Part shown: piece by piece, positions 10,333 through 35,309 of the stretch
Position numbering within the stretch: position 1 is the stretch's first letter
Layout: the number at the start of each line of letters is the position of its first letter
Virus genome (UHGV): UHGV-0072281
Origin: a virus
Direction: 5' to 3' (one strand)
DNA length: 64,000 nt
Notes under the pieces: generated by a model
The model's database searches: none
Seen by the model: only the letters and a program-made list of their open reading frames with translations
Told to the model about the DNA's origin: nothing
Translations under genes and position numbers: made by a program

Positions 10333-10954
10333 AGTTAACTAACCCGTTAGCTTTAAGAATCTCTAACATCTGGTTGTTTAACTCTTTTAATTTTTTGTTT
10401 TCGTTTGTCAACGAAATAACTTGTTCCGACAACGGAATAGCCTCTCGAATTTTCTTTTTCCGAGCCGCTTCCATTTGTAGGTGTTGCTCCTCCGTCACCT
10501 TCCCTTCATACTCCATGGTCGTGATTTCGACTTTCGGGTCGATACCCAACGTACGGGTGAGAATATCCGAAACGTCTTTAGTCATCACCGACACATCTAC
10601 ATAATCCGGTACAAACGATAAGTCCACCACCATCACATTACGCTGGTACGCGATTCCCGATAAACCGGGACACGATTCTACGTAAGTGTCGGGGATATAA
10701 ACGACTTGACCATCGCGTGATTTAAACGTAAGTATTGACGCGTTAACAGTGGCATCAGCAAGATATTCTTCTCGCTCCAACCCAACGGGCTTGTAATACT
10801 CGTTGTAAACATCAATATTCTGACGTACTAAATCTGGGAAGGTACGTGATGCCTCCACCGTGAAGATAACCGTTTCGGCTAACGTAAACGGTGTTTTTAC
10901 CTTAAATAAACCCGTTGTATTAACGGGAACCAAAAGAGGTAAACGCGTAGCCAT
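10331..10954 (-). CDS. hypothetical protein
   Basis: 207-aa minus-strand ORF immediately downstream of the 458-aa minus gene. Confidence 0.5.
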   Translation of the reverse strand: MATRLPLLVPVNTTGLFKVKTPFTLAETVIFTVEASRTFPDLVRQNIDVYNEYYKPVGLEREEYLADATVNASILTFKSRDGQVVYIPDTYVESCPGLSGIAYQRNVMVVDLSFVPDYVDVSVMTKDVSDILTRTLGIDPKVEITTMEYEGKVTEEQHLQMEAARKKKIREAIPLSEQVISLTNENKKLKELNNQMLEILKANGLVN

Positions 10955-10957
10955 TCA

Positions 10958-12331
10958 TTACTCCTCGTCGATTTCAGTATACCATTTCGCTTTACGAGAC
11001 AGTATGCGATATTCGACGTTATCGTATTCAAACACCCAGAAGTAGTTATCTGGATCGGCTTCATCAACGAGTTTCACGACGTCCAGACTGGTCTGATACG
11101 GATGGTATTCTTCCGCTGCTATTAACGCCTGGAAGAACAACGCTAACCACTCTGTGGTGGATTTCGACATTCGTGCAATGTCTGGGTTTGTTGTTGCAAT
11201 CAGTGCGTAGTCTGGTAACGTTTCGTGTAAGGTATTCTTACGAGTGTCGTTTTCAGGACCACTGATAACCACCATGTTCAGTGATTTATACACAGTAGGT
11301 AAATCGGTAACATCCGTTGTCGGTTTGCTTACCGTATTACTATTTCTTTCTGCAACAGACTGATCAGACCATTCCCCAAACTTTGTAATGGCTTTGACCC
11401 AGAAATCATATGGAAGGATGGGGGAATAGAGAGCCGCCACGTCTTCCTCATTCGGTATACCACGGATTTTCCACCCCGGAACCATTGTGAATTTCGTAGT
11501 GGTAAAGATCTCAGGGAATACCTTCACCCCAATCGGAACCGTAAAGCTGGAGTTTGCAAGAATATGTTCACGCAACGCTTGCTTTATTTTCGTTGGGTTT
11601 TTTCCTGCACGTCCGTAAATGATAACCGACATTGGAACAACCAGTGTTGACTCGTAGTTTTCTTGGTCATGCCAGGTGTAGTAGTTAGTTTGGATGGCAG
11701 TATACGGGAACCCTGCCATTAACTCGTTGATTTTCTTATGGTGTTCGGTAAGGTTAAACCCTTCCATCGCTTTTTCAACGACTGACTTTGTGGCCAAGAA
11801 TGTGTCGATTGGCTCAATCGGCATCTGTACTTCGATTTCAAAACCCGTGTAGTCCTGGTCGAAGTCTTCATCCGAGAACCAAACTATGATTTGGTTATCT
11901 ACATCAGTGTCATCTTGTACTTGATCTGCTGTTGCTTCATATTTCCAGCTCACCCAACGTGGGAACCAGTTACTGTTCGTCTGGATCATCGCACCGGACT
12001 GAACACCGGAAATGGTTGTTTGGAATTGGCCTAATAATAGGCGCTGGAATTCAAGTTCGTCATTTCTCAGATTCCCCAAGATGGCTTGCTGGTAAATCCA
12101 TTGAGAAACGGTTAGAATATGATCAGAAAACTCGGCTGGAACAACAACCGTCTGTTTTTCTCGTTTAGACGTAAATGTCACCAACTGCACTTGCAGATTG
12201 GATTTAGTAAACGTCTGTTTACTCTTCGCGTACGAGAGGGTCAGATCAGACAGCTCACCTACCGGAGCGGTGACGCCGTCCTGATTGTCAAACAGAGCCG
12301 GTATCTGAATAAAACCTTGTAAGTCTAACAT
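10958..12331 (-). CDS. hypothetical protein (possible virion/structural)
   Basis: start placed at internal Met (MLDLQGF, codon at 12329-12331) with GGAG RBS; track start 12391 would overlap the divergent gene. Confidence 0.5.
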   Translation of the reverse strand: MLDLQGFIQIPALFDNQDGVTAPVGELSDLTLSYAKSKQTFTKSNLQVQLVTFTSKREKQTVVVPAEFSDHILTVSQWIYQQAILGNLRNDELEFQRLLLGQFQTTISGVQSGAMIQTNSNWFPRWVSWKYEATADQVQDDTDVDNQIIVWFSDEDFDQDYTGFEIEVQMPIEPIDTFLATKSVVEKAMEGFNLTEHHKKINELMAGFPYTAIQTNYYTWHDQENYESTLVVPMSVIIYGRAGKNPTKIKQALREHILANSSFTVPIGVKVFPEIFTTTKFTMVPGWKIRGIPNEEDVAALYSPILPYDFWVKAITKFGEWSDQSVAERNSNTVSKPTTDVTDLPTVYKSLNMVVISGPENDTRKNTLHETLPDYALIATTNPDIARMSKSTTEWLALFFQALIAAEEYHPYQTSLDVVKLVDEADPDNYFWVFEYDNVEYRILSRKAKWYTEIDEE

Positions 12332-30651: not shown

Positions 30652-31197
30652 ATGAAACAAAAACAGTTAACTGATCACGTTAATGCGTTTAAACACTTTC
30701 TGGATAACGCGGGTATAAAACCTGGCGAACAGGCAGACGCATGGACTGCACGTCTATACGGAAGTATCGGCAAAGTCTGTGAATCCACGACAACACACGA
30801 CGGATTGTTTGTTGCTAAAGCAGTAGGCATTGCCTTGTGGGATATTGCCGCTTTAGTTTACGTGATGAATAACGGGGATTTACGCCCCCTTGAAAAATCG
30901 TTACACCGACTACTGGCCATTAAGAAATGGAAAAATGAACATCCTGAGTCAATCGCGGTTACGTTGATACCAGAAGCGGTACTTGCTATCAAAGCGGTAC
31001 GCAGTTGTACCGCCCGTGCACAAATGGAGCGTCGATTACATCTCACGACGCTCTTTTATCAATTGGCCAGAATTGTAAAAATGAACGGCCTAATCTTCGA
31101 CCGGGTTCTACAGAACGGACGTATAAGTTGGACAGAAGAACTAAGTAGTTCTCCGTTCTATACAAAACTAAAACTTAAAGACATTTTGAAGGGTTAA
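30652..31197 (+). CDS. hypothetical protein
   Basis: 181-aa ORF. Confidence 0.5.
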   Translation: MKQKQLTDHVNAFKHFLDNAGIKPGEQADAWTARLYGSIGKVCESTTTHDGLFVAKAVGIALWDIAALVYVMNNGDLRPLEKSLHRLLAIKKWKNEHPESIAVTLIPEAVLAIKAVRSCTARAQMERRLHLTTLFYQLARIVKMNGLIFDRVLQNGRISWTEELSSSPFYTKLKLKDILKG

Positions 31198-31198
31198 C

Positions 31199-31507
31199 AT
31201 GGAAAACTATTCAGGTTGGGCAATTTCGCAGTGCATTGGCTATTCTTTACGTTCTTTAGTGCGTACACTTTATAACAAAAACTCGGGCGAAGCTATTACA
31301 CCGCAGTTATTGGGCAAATTGGAAGTCGAAGTTAACTATAAACTAAAACAGTTACTCGATAATCACGTAAGAACAATGCGTTGGGAGTTCTTGCTACGTG
31401 GTAAGAAGCCTTCAATTACCGTTGTAGCAGAAGGCAGTGAAATCGTTCTCCAATCCAACGCAGACCTGTTTGAAATTTTAACTGAACTCGAAAAGGACAA
31501 AATCTAA
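31199..31507 (+). CDS. hypothetical protein
   Basis: 102-aa ORF. Confidence 0.45.
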   Translation: MENYSGWAISQCIGYSLRSLVRTLYNKNSGEAITPQLLGKLEVEVNYKLKQLLDNHVRTMRWEFLLRGKKPSITVVAEGSEIVLQSNADLFEILTELEKDKI

Positions 31508-31827
31508 TGACTGTGAACGACAATATAAAGAAAAAGATTGACGAGATTATAAGCGTCAGTTTAGATAGAATCGAGTTAATTCCCGAGACTAAGGAAATCA
31601 AATACTACGTTCCCGCAGACGAACTATTTCCAGGTCTTCTTAGAATCTCACCAAAAAAGGTTGAAGAGGCTAAACGCCAATTCGAAGTTCGTGGCCTTAA
31701 GGTTGACATTGTTAACAAAAAACATTTTCATGTAACGTATAGCCAGGAAAACATTATTTTTAGTCCTGAGCAAGCGCAACGTAATTTAGATATTTTAACG
31801 AAACGAATGGGGAATAATAACAAATGA
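31507..31827 (+). CDS. hypothetical protein
   Basis: 106-aa ORF. Confidence 0.45.
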
Positions 31828-32864
31828 AACAGTATTTAGCGTTAATGCAAGACATTCTGGATAACGGCGTTGTCAAAAAAGACCGTACAGGTGTAGGGAC
31901 ACTTTCTGTATTTGGTCGCCAACTACGTTTTGACCTGAAAGAAGGTTTCCCATTAGTTACTACGAAAAAGGTTCACCTGAAAAGTATCATTCATGAACTG
32001 TTGTGGTTCTTAAACGGTGACACTAACGTGAAGTACCTGCAAGAGAATGGGGTAAGAATCTGGAACGAGTGGGCGAATGAAGAAGGGGAATTAGGCCCTG
32101 TCTACGGGCAGCAGTGGCGGGAATGGATGGATACCAAACTGGTTTATCTTTGGGACGAGCGTAGCAAAGACGTATTGAGAGAACGAGGATATCGCTACAT
32201 TGGGACTATCGCAAAGGACGATCCTGAAGAAAGTATCGTTATTTATCGCAAATCTCACGACCAGATCAGTAAAGTTATTCAACAACTTCGTGAAGACCCA
32301 GATTCACGACGCATTATTGTTAGTGCCTGGAACGTAGGTGATCTGGACGATATGGCACTTAACCCATGCCATAATTACTTCCAATTCTACACAACAGAAA
32401 TGACGTTGCTTGAACGACTGGATTGGTACGAAGTAAACGAACCGGAAAAATTTGCGAACGCACCACTTATTACTCACGAAGATATCGATAGCGAAGAACG
32501 ACTTCACGAAATTTTAGATCGTGAGGGCATTCCACGCCGTAAGCTTTCATGTTTTTACATGATGCGGAGCAACGATTACCTACTCGGCGCACCGTTTAAC
32601 GTCGCTTCTTACGCGTTGTTAACCCACATGATTGCTCAACAACTCAATATGGTTCCAGACGAGTTGGTTTATAGTGGCGTAGATGTTCATCTTTACTCTA
32701 ACCATCTGGAGCAGGCAAAACTTCAACTTACACGCGAACCTTACCCGCTACCTAAACTGGTTATCAAACGTAAACCTGATTCTATCTTCGATTACAAATA
32801 CGAAGACTTCGAATTGGTTGGGTATCAATCACACGACACAATTAAAGCTCCCATAGCTGTCTAA
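31824..32864 (+). CDS. thyA: thymidylate synthase (ThyA-type) with two internal insertions
   Basis: near-identical blocks to E. coli ThyA as recalled: [56 protein letters not shown] (catalytic Cys), [29 protein letters not shown]; 346 aa vs about 264. Confidence 0.9.
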
Positions 32865-32871
32865 GGGGTAC

Positions 32872-33168
32872 ATGATGATTAATGAGAAAACGCACGCAGA
32901 GTTAACTTCTTTCGGTATTAGTCGATTAGCTGAACTAAAAACTATCACCGAACGTGCCGGAATAGCATTGCAGGCCAAAGGTAAGTTTGATCAAGCTGAT
33001 ATCGAAATCTTAGAGAAGATTTCGGCAACGTTAAAAGACTTACGTGTATTGAATATTCTTGTTGGTAAATTGGGTGGTCTAAGTAACAAGAAATTGGCCG
33101 AAATACACGGGGTGACGCCAAGCCGAATATCTCAAATCATCAGCAAGGCCAAACGAGATTTTCAATAA
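32872..33168 (+). CDS. small sigma-70 region-4-like / GerE-type HTH protein
   Basis: C-terminal LRVLNILVGKLGGLSNKKLAEIHGVTPSRISQIISKAKRDF resembles sigma70 region 4.2 (L..RE..VL..RFG...TLEEVG..FGVTRERIRQIE.KALRKL). Confidence 0.45.
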   Translation: MMINEKTHAELTSFGISRLAELKTITERAGIALQAKGKFDQADIEILEKISATLKDLRVLNILVGKLGGLSNKKLAEIHGVTPSRISQIISKAKRDFQ

Positions 33169-33202
33169 AGTTATTTCGCTTGTAATTAAAAGGAACAATG
33201 AA

Positions 33203-33649
33203 ATGTCTAAAACTCATGTTAACTATAACATCGTAGTAGAAGAATTATCAAAAGGTTTAACTGATCTGGATTCTAAAGATAATCCATTTACCGATCGTTA
33301 TGGACCTAAAGCTTTATCTGAATTCCGTACTATTCGATATGGTACAGGTAGACAGACGGGGCTTACAGACTTCGGTGTCGAGTTAGCTAAGAACCATAAA
33401 GGGAAGGTATTATTCGTTAATCCAAAAGGGTTCTTAGAGGACGATGTGTTATTCCGTTTGGGTCTCGAAGACTTACCGGAGAATATCACGCAAATCATTG
33501 GCTATCAAATGGGTACAGAAAAAGAAAAATACAGCCTTGTTATTGTAGACAACGCTGGGGTTTTCTTTAATATTTTCCGTTACATGAAATTCTTCCGCTT
33601 ACTAGCAAACTCAGTAACTAAAGACGTCGTAATACATTTAATGGGTTAA
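33203..33649 (+). CDS. hypothetical protein
   Basis: 148-aa ORF. Confidence 0.5.
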   Translation: MSKTHVNYNIVVEELSKGLTDLDSKDNPFTDRYGPKALSEFRTIRYGTGRQTGLTDFGVELAKNHKGKVLFVNPKGFLEDDVLFRLGLEDLPENITQIIGYQMGTEKEKYSLVIVDNAGVFFNIFRYMKFFRLLANSVTKDVVIHLMG

Positions 33650-33666
33650 TCGATGAGGTTGGTTGT

Positions 33667-33837
33667 ATGGAAGAATTAGAGACAGTTTCCTGTTACATTC
33701 CTAGAAGACGCGTTATAAAAGAATGTTACATCGATAAAATTTTAATCTCTCGTATCAAGAAAGGTCCACGAAAACATCGAACCAAGAAAGTGTTTATTTA
33801 TAAACACTTCGAAAAGGTTCTAATCCGACCTTACTGA
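33667..33837 (+). CDS. tiny basic protein with KKGPRKHR motif (paralog 1 of 3)
   Basis: hand-translated MEELETVSCYIPRRRVIKECYIDKILISRIKKGPRKHRTKKVFIYKHFEKVLIRPY; GAGG RBS. Confidence 0.35.
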   Translation: MEELETVSCYIPRRRVIKECYIDKILISRIKKGPRKHRTKKVFIYKHFEKVLIRPY

Positions 33838-33865
33838 TTAAATTAACTCATGGAGTAAATTTGTT

Positions 33866-34063
33866 ATGCTGAACGATGTTCTTAGTTTCTCGATAATGTA
33901 TTTCGAACCGAAGAAATTCCGTACCATTGTTACACGTTGTCGGAAAGGGCCGCGTAAAGGACGTAAACGTTTCCAAGTAATTCAACTTTCTTATTCTGCG
34001 CTCCTTGAAGCTAACCCATTCGAGATGAAACCTAATGAAGAAACCGGATTTACTCAACATTGA
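33866..34063 (+). CDS. small basic protein with RKGPRKGRKR motif (paralog 2 of 3)
   Basis: IVTRCRKGPRKGRKRFQV aligns with ILISRIKKGPRKHRTKKVF of the preceding ORF. Confidence 0.4.
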   Translation: MLNDVLSFSIMYFEPKKFRTIVTRCRKGPRKGRKRFQVIQLSYSALLEANPFEMKPNEETGFTQH

Positions 34064-34478: not shown

Positions 34479-35309
34479 ATGGGCGAACGTTTTGACATCA
34501 ACACTATTTACAACATCGTGGTTAATCCTGGTCAACACCTGGAAGAAGTTAACGCACAACTGCGTGCTCTGAATGAAAAAGCAATGCAGTTCGATGCTAT
34601 TTACACAATTGGTGTAAATCCTGGCACCAACCGTGTTCGTGTAGAAGGTAAACGCCACACCGGTAATCAAGAACTGGATATCGAAACGATCGAAGCACCG
34701 ATTAAACTTACAGGTGCCGAATATAACGGTACAGTAATGCACACCGTATCGGTTCCGGTCTACTCTATCGAGAACTGTGTAGAACGTGTTAAAGGTTGGT
34801 CTAAAGAACGTGGTATTCTCGACAACGGTAAACTGGAAACACAAATCACAAAGTTCTTTGAAGAGTTTGGTGAAATCGCAACAGGTATCAGCAAAAACAA
34901 ACCTGAACTGATCATGGACGGTATCGGCGATGCGTTAGTGGTTCTGGTGAACATTCTGGAACTGGGTAAAGAATACCATGACGAATACTTAACAACGGCC
35001 GATATTATTAGTAGCGGTTTAACTATGCAACTTCGTGATGTTGCAAATGTTGAAGCTTGTGCAAACGATCATAAATTCCCACATCGAAAATACCTGGAAG
35101 CAACTAAATCTTTTTCCACGTCTTTCTTAAATACTAACAAAGACGATAACCTGTTCGATCATGGTTTGTATTGCCTTGCTTGTCTCGCGCTGTATTACAA
35201 ACTGGACATTCGCCATTGTTTCTCTTTAGCCTGGCATGAAATCAAAGACCGTAAAGGTTACCTGAACGCCGACGGCATCTTTGTAAAAGATGCAGACTTG
35301 GCGAAATAA
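34479..35309 (+). CDS. MazG-like nucleotide pyrophosphohydrolase domain (C-terminal) with N-terminal extension
   Basis: FFEEFGEIATGI...DGIGDALVVLVNILE...WHEIKDRKG fits the all-alpha NTP-PPase EExxE...D..GD...L...K.R pattern. Confidence 0.5.
   Translation: MGERFDINTIYNIVVNPGQHLEEVNAQLRALNEKAMQFDAIYTIGVNPGTNRVRVEGKRHTGNQELDIETIEAPIKLTGAEYNGTVMHTVSVPVYSIENCVERVKGWSKERGILDNGKLETQITKFFEEFGEIATGISKNKPELIMDGIGDALVVLVNILELGKEYHDEYLTTADIISSGLTMQLRDVANVEACANDHKFPHRKYLEATKSFSTSFLNTNKDDNLFDHGLYCLACLALYYKLDIRHCFSLAWHEIKDRKGYLNADGIFVKDADLAK

Follow-up and report, generated by a model that had tools for sequence, protein, structure and literature searches.

The thyA gene and its predicted product

In the virus genome UHGV-0072281, a stretch of 64 kb was analysed (hereafter the window; all coordinates refer to this whole stretch). 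It contains thyA, a gene for a thymidylate synthase (TS) whose enterobacterial-type core is interrupted at two places by in-frame inserts. These are predicted to fold, occur at the same sites in related jumbo phages and probably shape a protein-protein surface of the enzyme rather than its chemistry. The gene and the surrounding features are compiled in Table 1. The ATG start of thyA overlaps the stop codon of the preceding open reading frame (ORF) as ATGA, which suggests that the two genes may be co-transcribed and translationally coupled.

Table 1. Position of thyA, its parts and the neighbouring ORFs in the window (Ec, numbering of E. coli ThyA; aa, amino acids)
Feature	Position	Strand	Description
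thyA coding sequence	31824..32864	+	346 codons plus TAA stop; single open frame without interruption
Core block 1, residues 1-102 (Ec 1-102)	31824..32129	+	R21, E58, W80, W83, Y94
Insert 1, residues 103-144	32130..32255	+	42 aa replacing 6, net +36 (phmmer)
Core block 2, residues 145-191 (Ec 109-155)	32256..32396	+	R162/R163 (Ec R126/R127), NPCH
Catalytic Cys182 of NPCH	32367-32369	+	within core block 2
Insert 2, residues 192-238	32397..32537	+	47 aa replacing 1, net +46 (phmmer)
Core block 3, residues 239-346 (Ec 157-264)	32538..32861	+	phmmer alignment to E. coli ThyA; LSCFYMMR strand, R248, S249, D251, N259, H289, Y291, C-terminal KAPIAV
Upstream ORF, 106 aa	31507..31827	+	function unassigned; stop overlaps thyA start
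Pair of neighbouring ORFs, 181 aa and 102 aa	30652-31197 and 31199-31507		match N- and C-terminal parts of phrog_10269
ORF directly downstream of thyA, 98 aa	32872-33168		weak C-terminal helix-turn-helix (HTH_3 / Sigma70_r4, sub-threshold)
Three small tandem/overlapping ORFs, 56, 65 and 79 aa	33667-34274		each with a basic K/R-G-P-(R/G)-K-like motif
MazG-like nucleotide pyrophosphohydrolase	34479-35309		phrog_7855, 4.7e-73; 1.6 kb downstream of thyA

The translated protein is covered by PF00303 (Pfam) over residues 2-346 (3.3e-110; 367.8 bits vs a cut-off of 24.3), and it exceeds the cut-offs of the NCBIfam thymidylate synthase equivalogs NF002499 (411.8; cut-off 405), NF002497 (395.7; 327) and TIGR03284 (340.2; 108.35). 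Among PDB sequences the best match is E. coli ThyA (264 aa; E = 2.5e-109), which aligns in the three collinear blocks of Table 1. With the inserts excluded, 170 of 251 positions are identical (67.7%). The catalytic and ligand-binding positions were checked against E. coli ThyA, and all 26 are identical or conservatively replaced (Ec R21, E58, I79, W80, W83, Y94, R126/R127, C146, H147, R166, S167, D169, L172, G173, F176, N177, H207, Y209, the C-terminus and others). Thus, the nucleophile and its neighbour (C182/H183) are present together with the phosphate-binding arginines R21, R248 and R162/R163 (Ec R21, R166, R126', R127'), the uracil-specifying asparagine (N259, Ec N177) and the folate-site residues I79, W80, W83, D251, L254, G255, F258 and Y291. 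The C-terminus reads IAV, where E. coli has VAI. An earlier note on this DNA had described the core as close to enterobacterial ThyA including the NPCH cysteine, and this description holds.

An AlphaFold2 model built from a 60-sequence alignment reached a mean predicted local distance difference test score (pLDDT) of 94.9 and a predicted TM-score (pTM) of 0.92. In Foldseek, it matched E. coli TS with E = 4.8e-42 and a target-normalized TM-score (TMt) of 0.96-0.97. The E. coli enzyme (PDB 2TSC, 1TYS and others) shares the fold, catalytic cysteine, arginine quartet, asparagine, folate residues and C-terminus, whereas both inserts are missing from it and the query-normalized TM-score (TMq) is at best 0.73-0.74. 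An orthologue is annotated as thyA by the Prokaryotic Genome Annotation Pipeline. From sequence and fold, the gene can be predicted with high confidence to encode a canonical ThyA that methylates deoxyuridine monophosphate (dUMP).

Structure, distribution and evolution of the two inserts

Alignment to the E. coli ThyA sequence from the PDB placed the inserts at residues 103-144 and 192-238, i.e., after the QQWREW and FQFYT blocks, where the earlier note had located additions of about 35 and 45 residues. Their net gains (Table 1) sum to 82 residues, the difference between 346 and 264. Both inserts, of 126 and 141 nucleotides, are in frame and, as had been stated, hydrophilic, with grand averages of hydropathy of -0.91 (insert 1) and -0.86 (insert 2). 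Their guanine-cytosine (GC) content of 0.42 and 0.44, respectively, compares with 0.43 in the core.

Insert 1 is predicted by AlphaFold2 as a beta-alpha-beta-beta unit (strand 101-108, helix 112-120, strands 124-129 and 138-145) with pLDDT values of 95-98. It takes the place of the segment Ec 100-110, which has been named the interface loop and in which human TS likewise has an insertion (PMC4661567). For insert 2, the prediction consists of short helices, four in number (195-205, 207-212, 218-222 and 224-233), with model confidence falling to a pLDDT of about 69 around residues 211-220. Insert 2 lies at the beta-hairpin Ec 155-158, directly before the LSCxxxxR strand, and reads T-x-E-[LM]-T-x-x-ER ... 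LD-x-x-G-[IV]-P-x-R-x-LSC in motif form. The strand itself is LSCQLYQR in E. coli and LSCFYMMR in the window protein; the LSCQLYQR peptide is presumably a copy of this strand following the hairpin. Peptides of this sequence were designed to target the monomer-monomer interface of TS (PMC8041318).

No solved TS spans either insert in the Foldseek search of the PDB, the best matches being confined to the core. Searching Pfam with the inserts alone returned noise only (DUF1653, E = 0.14; DUF6678, E = 0.12). An internal duplication relating insert 1 to insert 2 was rejected (hhalign P = 0.25), and a hidden Markov model (HMM) built from the module at the second site did not detect insert 1 of the window. 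Selfish in-frame repeats of the type of the Rickettsia palindromic elements (RPE) were rejected as well, as tblastn and blastn gave no further copy of an insert in the 64-kb window. An interruption by an intron, intein or homing endonuclease was likewise discarded: the inserts are in frame and folded in the model, their Pfam matches reach only E = 0.12-0.14, and no group I intron or intron-like RNA was matched in Rfam at E <= 1 over positions 31500-33200. The claim that the inserts are additions at the protein level is therefore upheld by their frame, by two AlphaFold2 models in which they are folded, by the empty Rfam search and by the ratio of nonsynonymous to synonymous substitution (omega) of 0.05-0.27.

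As megablast of positions 31000-34000 against a phage isolate collection gave no match at the nucleotide level, relatives were sought by tblastn. Among 50,697 phage records, ThyA genes of Seoulvirus (SPN3US and relatives), Goslarvirus, Erskinevirus and Machinavirus, encoding 339-353 aa, aligned in a single piece with 100% query coverage and 58-64% identity, and a multiple alignment showed both inserts at identical sites in all four genera. The comparison included SPN3US (AEP84062.1), Goslar (QBO63934.1), Asesino gp251, phiEaH2 and Machina gp242, which share 59-63% identity with the window protein over their whole length, 37-49% in the inserts and 68-75% in the core. ThyA of the sister genera is 77-80% identical to E. 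coli ThyA. When the insert peptides alone were searched against the phage records, matches were obtained solely to ThyA genes of the jumbo-phage group (37-49% identity), and no stand-alone homologue of either insert was found. The best viral structure match in BFVD was the thymidylate synthase of 201phi2-1 (B3FJL1, 457 aa), which covered the whole query including the inserts (TMq 0.92, root-mean-square deviation 2.2), compared to about 0.73 for solved insert-less TS. With 34% identity it is about 110 residues longer and hence bears further insertions.

Since inserts occupy both sites in four genera and in the structural match of 201phi2-1, the gene with its inserts is judged to be old in this phage lineage; by these comparisons the inserts are inherited and the architecture appears essentially viral. 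The suggestion of a recent host-derived origin made in the earlier note is thereby contradicted. That note had also considered that the apparent inserts might turn out to be conserved in ordinary ThyA clades. Conservation was indeed found, yet within a largely viral clade only, and the motif of insert 2 is nearly absent from cellular genomes.

This distribution was derived from two larger surveys. The 150 best representatives at 50% identity were drawn from 1.84 billion proteins, and 113 of these have 25 or more inserted residues at site 2, 92 have 20 or more at site 1, and 70 combine both; these counts do not represent frequencies, because the ranking prefers insert-bearing proteins. Metagenomic and viral ThyA proteins often have an insert at one or the other of these positions, and the catalytic residues are conserved throughout the insert-bearing viral set. 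The modules follow the motifs W-x-D-x-[KR]-x-V ... G-[YF] at site 1 and T-x-E-[LM]-T-x-x-ER ... LD-x-x-x-[VI]P-x-R-x-LS at site 2, to which inserts 1 and 2 of the window, respectively, conform. In the second survey, the start of the site-2 module was searched as a degenerate DNA pattern in IMG/VR and in cellular genomes. In IMG/VR it matched 82 contigs, of which 38 have a length of 185 kb or more. Among 185,579 bacterial and archaeal species genomes (596 Gb, one genome per species), it gave 7 matches, with about 1-2 expected by chance; 5 of the 7 were ThyA, located mostly on contigs of metagenome-assembled genomes.

Further variants were noticed among these relatives. In the genome of one cultured bacterium, Cesiribacteraceae bacterium YIM B00369, a 158-kb scaffold (scaffold14) contains a gene for a ThyA of 311 aa whose site-2 module is short, which is a rare cellular (or prophage) case of an otherwise viral architecture. 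Very long interface-loop insertions of 100-280 aa at site 1 were present in 27 of the 150 representatives, e.g., proteins P0131 and P0160. Two members of this group match the I-HmuI NUMOD-like homing-endonuclease domain below threshold, and the long insertions may be read-throughs of endonucleases or introns, or insertions of whole domains. At the IMG/VR loci L026-L105, 23 of 77 insert-bearing ThyA proteins have the C-terminus ...PLSN in place of ...P[VI]A[VI]; counted separately, a tyrosine at Ec W83 occurs in 23 of 77. Such proteins may constitute a subgroup whose chemistry or use of the cofactor is altered. Moreover, the Serratia phage KpSz_1 (MN871448.1) carries an unannotated ThyA of 459 aa with apparently three similar helix-loop-'GVPxR' modules, located at site A (Ec 83-88), within Ec 110-146 and at site 2. 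Modules of site A and site 2 resemble each other across many sequences (hhalign P = 1.2e-4; HMM domain E about 1e-4), which suggests that the module may have been duplicated into other ThyA loops.

Insertions in TS are in themselves not restricted to this lineage. L. casei ThyA contains a small-domain insert of about 50 aa at site A and retains activity; this site is empty in the window protein. At site 2, the sequences of L. casei, human and T4 TS are presumably all short. A large site-2 insert is thus found in none of the best PDB matches and is not known from the enzymes of L. casei, human and T4. Human TS, with its eukaryotic inserts, tolerates a lineage-specific insertion of only about 8 aa at site 1 without loss of activity. 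An insertion of the human enzyme in Ec 100-110 is described in PMC4661567. ThyA of other phages, such as T4 Td and its counterparts in further T4-like and T5-like phages, is likewise phage-encoded and supplies deoxythymidine monophosphate (dTMP) as the window enzyme would, whereas these genes of about 280-290 codons show 25-40% identity and have neither insert. The td intron of T4-like phages is an interruption of another kind, and thyA of the window has no intron according to Rfam.

Variation on a shorter time scale was assessed in the 120 closest clusters, which are at least 87% identical. Variable columns make up 76% of insert 1 and 64% of insert 2 compared to 23-34% of the core, and in-frame indels (2 aa, 5 aa) occur solely inside the inserts. 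Nevertheless, omega calculated after Nei-Gojobori from six nucleotide sequences was 0.05-0.27 in the inserts vs 0.04-0.11 in the core, and the inserts are therefore considered to be constrained by purifying selection.

Insert 1 exists in two allelic forms without any intermediate: A, the allele of the window, in 32 clusters and B in 88. Allele B is 34-36% identical to A and two residues shorter, and identity in the core never falls below 90%. Aligned to the element of E. coli 98232 (window positions 32130-32255 against the locus 180661-204113 of NZ_CP173450.1, locus positions 10830-11864), the nucleotide identity drops from 93-100% to 33-60% only at codons of about 101-140. Allele A is nearest to insert 1 of Machina (45%) and allele B to that of Goslar (48%), compared to 34% between A and B. 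Allele B was modelled by AlphaFold2 with the same beta-alpha-beta-beta fold (pLDDT at least 97), and purifying selection holds within each allele class. Further mosaic tracts were found elsewhere in thyA and in the region; recombination is hence general, with insert 1 as its extreme case. As part of the joint explanation preferred below, insert 1 is probably an exchangeable cassette, the two alleles of which have diverged deeply.

The phage genome and the neighbourhood of thyA

The window further contains two genes for split RNA polymerase beta subunits as well as genes for a tail sheath, SbcC, a UvsX-like recombinase, an RNase H-like protein and an SLT-domain protein of 2,377 aa. The ORF lengths upstream of thyA agree with those annotated around gp223-229 of SPN3US, and the ORF order around the gene is similar in both phages. 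Proteins identical or 88-98% identical were found on contigs of 220-226 kb from metagenomes and from assemblies labelled Salmonella, E. coli and Shigella. Two relatives with about 91% DNA identity are listed in sequence records as circular "plasmids" of 222 kb, one from E. coli 98232 (NZ_CP173450.1) and one from Enterobacter ludwigii (NZ_CP134650.1). Persistent, non-temperate Seoul-like nucleus-forming jumbo phages have been reported to occur in bacterial assemblies, and both the plasmid-labelled relatives and the assembly contigs are consistent with such persistent virulent phages (bioRxiv 10.1101/2024.12.31.630880). The genome harbouring thyA is thus probably that of an SPN3US-like (Seoul-like, Chimalliviridae-type) jumbo phage of about 225 kb. 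This assignment is based on the split RNA polymerase genes, the tail sheath, the ORF order and the 220-226 kb contigs on which relatives lie.

Upstream, the family phrog_10269 (299 positions) corresponds to one gene of 289 aa in SPN3US (gp228) and to two ORFs in the window. A related contig (L013) features the same split, and a sequencing error is therefore improbable. The phrog_10269 family also showed a weak match to the MazG-like protein. The 98-aa ORF following thyA recurs in the related locus L017 and is absent from the E. coli 98232 element, for which reason it is regarded as a variable accessory gene. The three small ORFs contain the motifs KKGPRKHRTKK, RKGPRKGRKR and RKRKGPGSNK and had no match in Pfam; judged by these motifs, their products may be paralogous small basic proteins. 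As the MazG-like gene lies close to thyA, the region can be seen as a small nucleotide-metabolism neighbourhood.

Possible roles of the inserts

The explanation preferred here, with reasonably good though not full confidence, is that the gene encodes the canonical ThyA of a jumbo phage and that its inherited surface modules most likely re-specify a protein-protein surface. The enzyme would convert dUMP and methylenetetrahydrofolate to dTMP and dihydrofolate and thereby feed the replication of the phage genome of about 225 kb; it would be made in the cytoplasm beside the host ThyA. Insert 1 would act as a folded unit substituting for the short interface loop and insert 2 as a helical outgrowth of the hairpin, with both enlarging or re-specifying the subunit interface or another protein-protein surface and probably leaving the chemistry unchanged. 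A role of this kind is the most likely one because the inserts seem to adjoin dimer-contact elements, away from the catalytic residues. They could prevent pairing with the host ThyA, which is 68-80% identical and whose active sites are shared between subunits. Alternatively, they could dock a partner protein. The assembly into a phage nucleotide-synthesis complex that the earlier note had considered is a further candidate role.

Several points weigh against this explanation. That the inserts lie near the interface is deduced from their position in the primary sequence and from literature on E. coli and human TS, and activity of the insert-bearing enzyme is a prediction from sequence and fold. 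The high variability of the inserts (64-76% of columns vs 23-34%) and their possession of all indels would also fit a weakly constrained decoration. A fusion of TS with green fluorescent protein (TS-GFP) is reported to be shut out of the phage nucleus during PhiPA3 infection, which would favour a cytoplasmic site of action beside the host ThyA; the fused TS may, however, have been either the phage or the host enzyme.

If the decoration were indeed weakly constrained, the inserts would be the outcome of neutral, entrenched loop growth at indel-tolerant sites, retained since their removal destabilizes the fold and engaged in no specific interaction. This possibility is considered unlikely, although less so than the others. 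It would account for the few to more than 250 residues held by both sites across relatives, for the inserts being the most variable parts and the sole place of in-frame indels, and for the coincidence of site 1 with the insertion region of human TS (PMC4661567). An omega of 0.05-0.27 instead of about 1 speaks against it, as does the conservation of W-x-D-x-K/R-x-V ... GY in insert 1 and of T-x-E-L-T-x-x-ER ... LD-x-x-x-VP-x-R in insert 2 among proteins that are 45-60% identical. Furthermore, the predicted fold is kept between alleles of 34% identity. Alternatively, insert 1, and perhaps insert 2, would form a specificity surface in antagonistic or partner co-evolution, recognized by a host immune sensor or inhibitor or by a variable phage partner, with its two alleles maintained or exchanged by selection; this is regarded as rather improbable. 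The same modest weight is given to the broader idea that the inserts are dedicated interaction modules, relatives of which were copied into other ThyA loops in other jumbo phages, with insert 1 as an exchangeable specificity cassette under balancing or diversifying selection; insert 1 would then decide on pairing or recognition, be it self vs host ThyA, a nucleotide-synthesis partner, an immune sensor or an inhibitor. A specificity surface would be in line with the strictly bimodal insert 1 (32 A, 88 B) despite a core of at least 90% identity, with the restriction of the nucleotide divergence to the cassette, with each allele being nearer to the insert of another genus than to the other allele, and with purifying selection inside each class. 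Still, the gene and the region are mosaic as a whole, and the cassette may merely be the most visible recombination tract. A correlation with the host is not obvious either, since alleles A and B alike are present in assemblies with the labels Salmonella, E. coli and Shigella, and a literature search turned up no report of a phage thymidylate synthase triggering defence.

Two further explanations are assigned very little probability. One is a changed chemistry, i.e., a hydroxymethylase of dUMP or deoxycytidine monophosphate (dCMP), or another pyrimidine-modifying variant serving hypermodified bases; the earlier note had similarly thought of an altered substrate preference. Phage enzymes of this sort do exist within the TS superfamily (PMC7824862). 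The MazG-like pyrophosphatase near thyA and the non-canonical C-termini and W83Y exchanges of some insert-bearing IMG/VR relatives would also agree with such a variant. However, hydroxymethylase traits, i.e., an aspartate at Ec N177 and a lost C-terminal closure motif, are absent from the window ThyA, and it is the retained Asn259 together with the KAPIAV C-terminus that disfavours an enzyme of this type. For dUMP hydroxymethylases the distinguishing features are presumably less sharp than the aspartate-for-N177 exchange of the dCMP enzymes. W80, W83, Y94, D251 and F258 are kept in addition, the TS equivalog cut-offs are passed, and PHROG scans of about 20 window ORFs including the neighbours of thyA revealed no hypermodification kinase or transferase. 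An altered substrate preference is accordingly unlikely, given the preserved Asn259, folate residues and C-terminal APIAV. The other explanation, by now largely refuted, would be a recent capture of an enterobacterial gene followed by de novo gain of the inserts, or remnants of selfish in-frame DNA, an intron or an intein. The core identity of 67.7% to E. coli ThyA, and of 77-80% in the sister genera, would suit a recent capture, but homologous inserts are present in at least four genera and structurally in 201phi2-1. Selfish DNA is opposed by the single copy of each insert in the window, by a GC content like that of the core and by the lack of an Rfam match or, for the inserts alone, of a significant Pfam match.

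The annotation of the gene as thyA remains unaffected by these results, and its identity was already known, as SPN3US, Goslar and other orthologues are annotated as thymidylate synthase. Of interest are rather the uncharacterized modules and the dimorphism of insert 1; a search of the literature on jumbo-phage TS inserts, on TS and the phage nucleus and on phage TS in defence yielded no description of these inserts. Accordingly, a large and almost exclusively viral branch of a well-studied enzyme bears two add-on modules which are predicted to be folded and seem to adjoin dimer-contact elements. Purifying selection acts on these modules, and they are exchanged as cassettes by recombination. 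The motif of insert 2 could be used in metagenomes as a marker for viral, chiefly jumbo-phage, thyA. If the modules govern dimer specificity or the binding of a partner, they would provide an example of a phage insulating or wiring a host-like enzyme in a shared cytoplasm.

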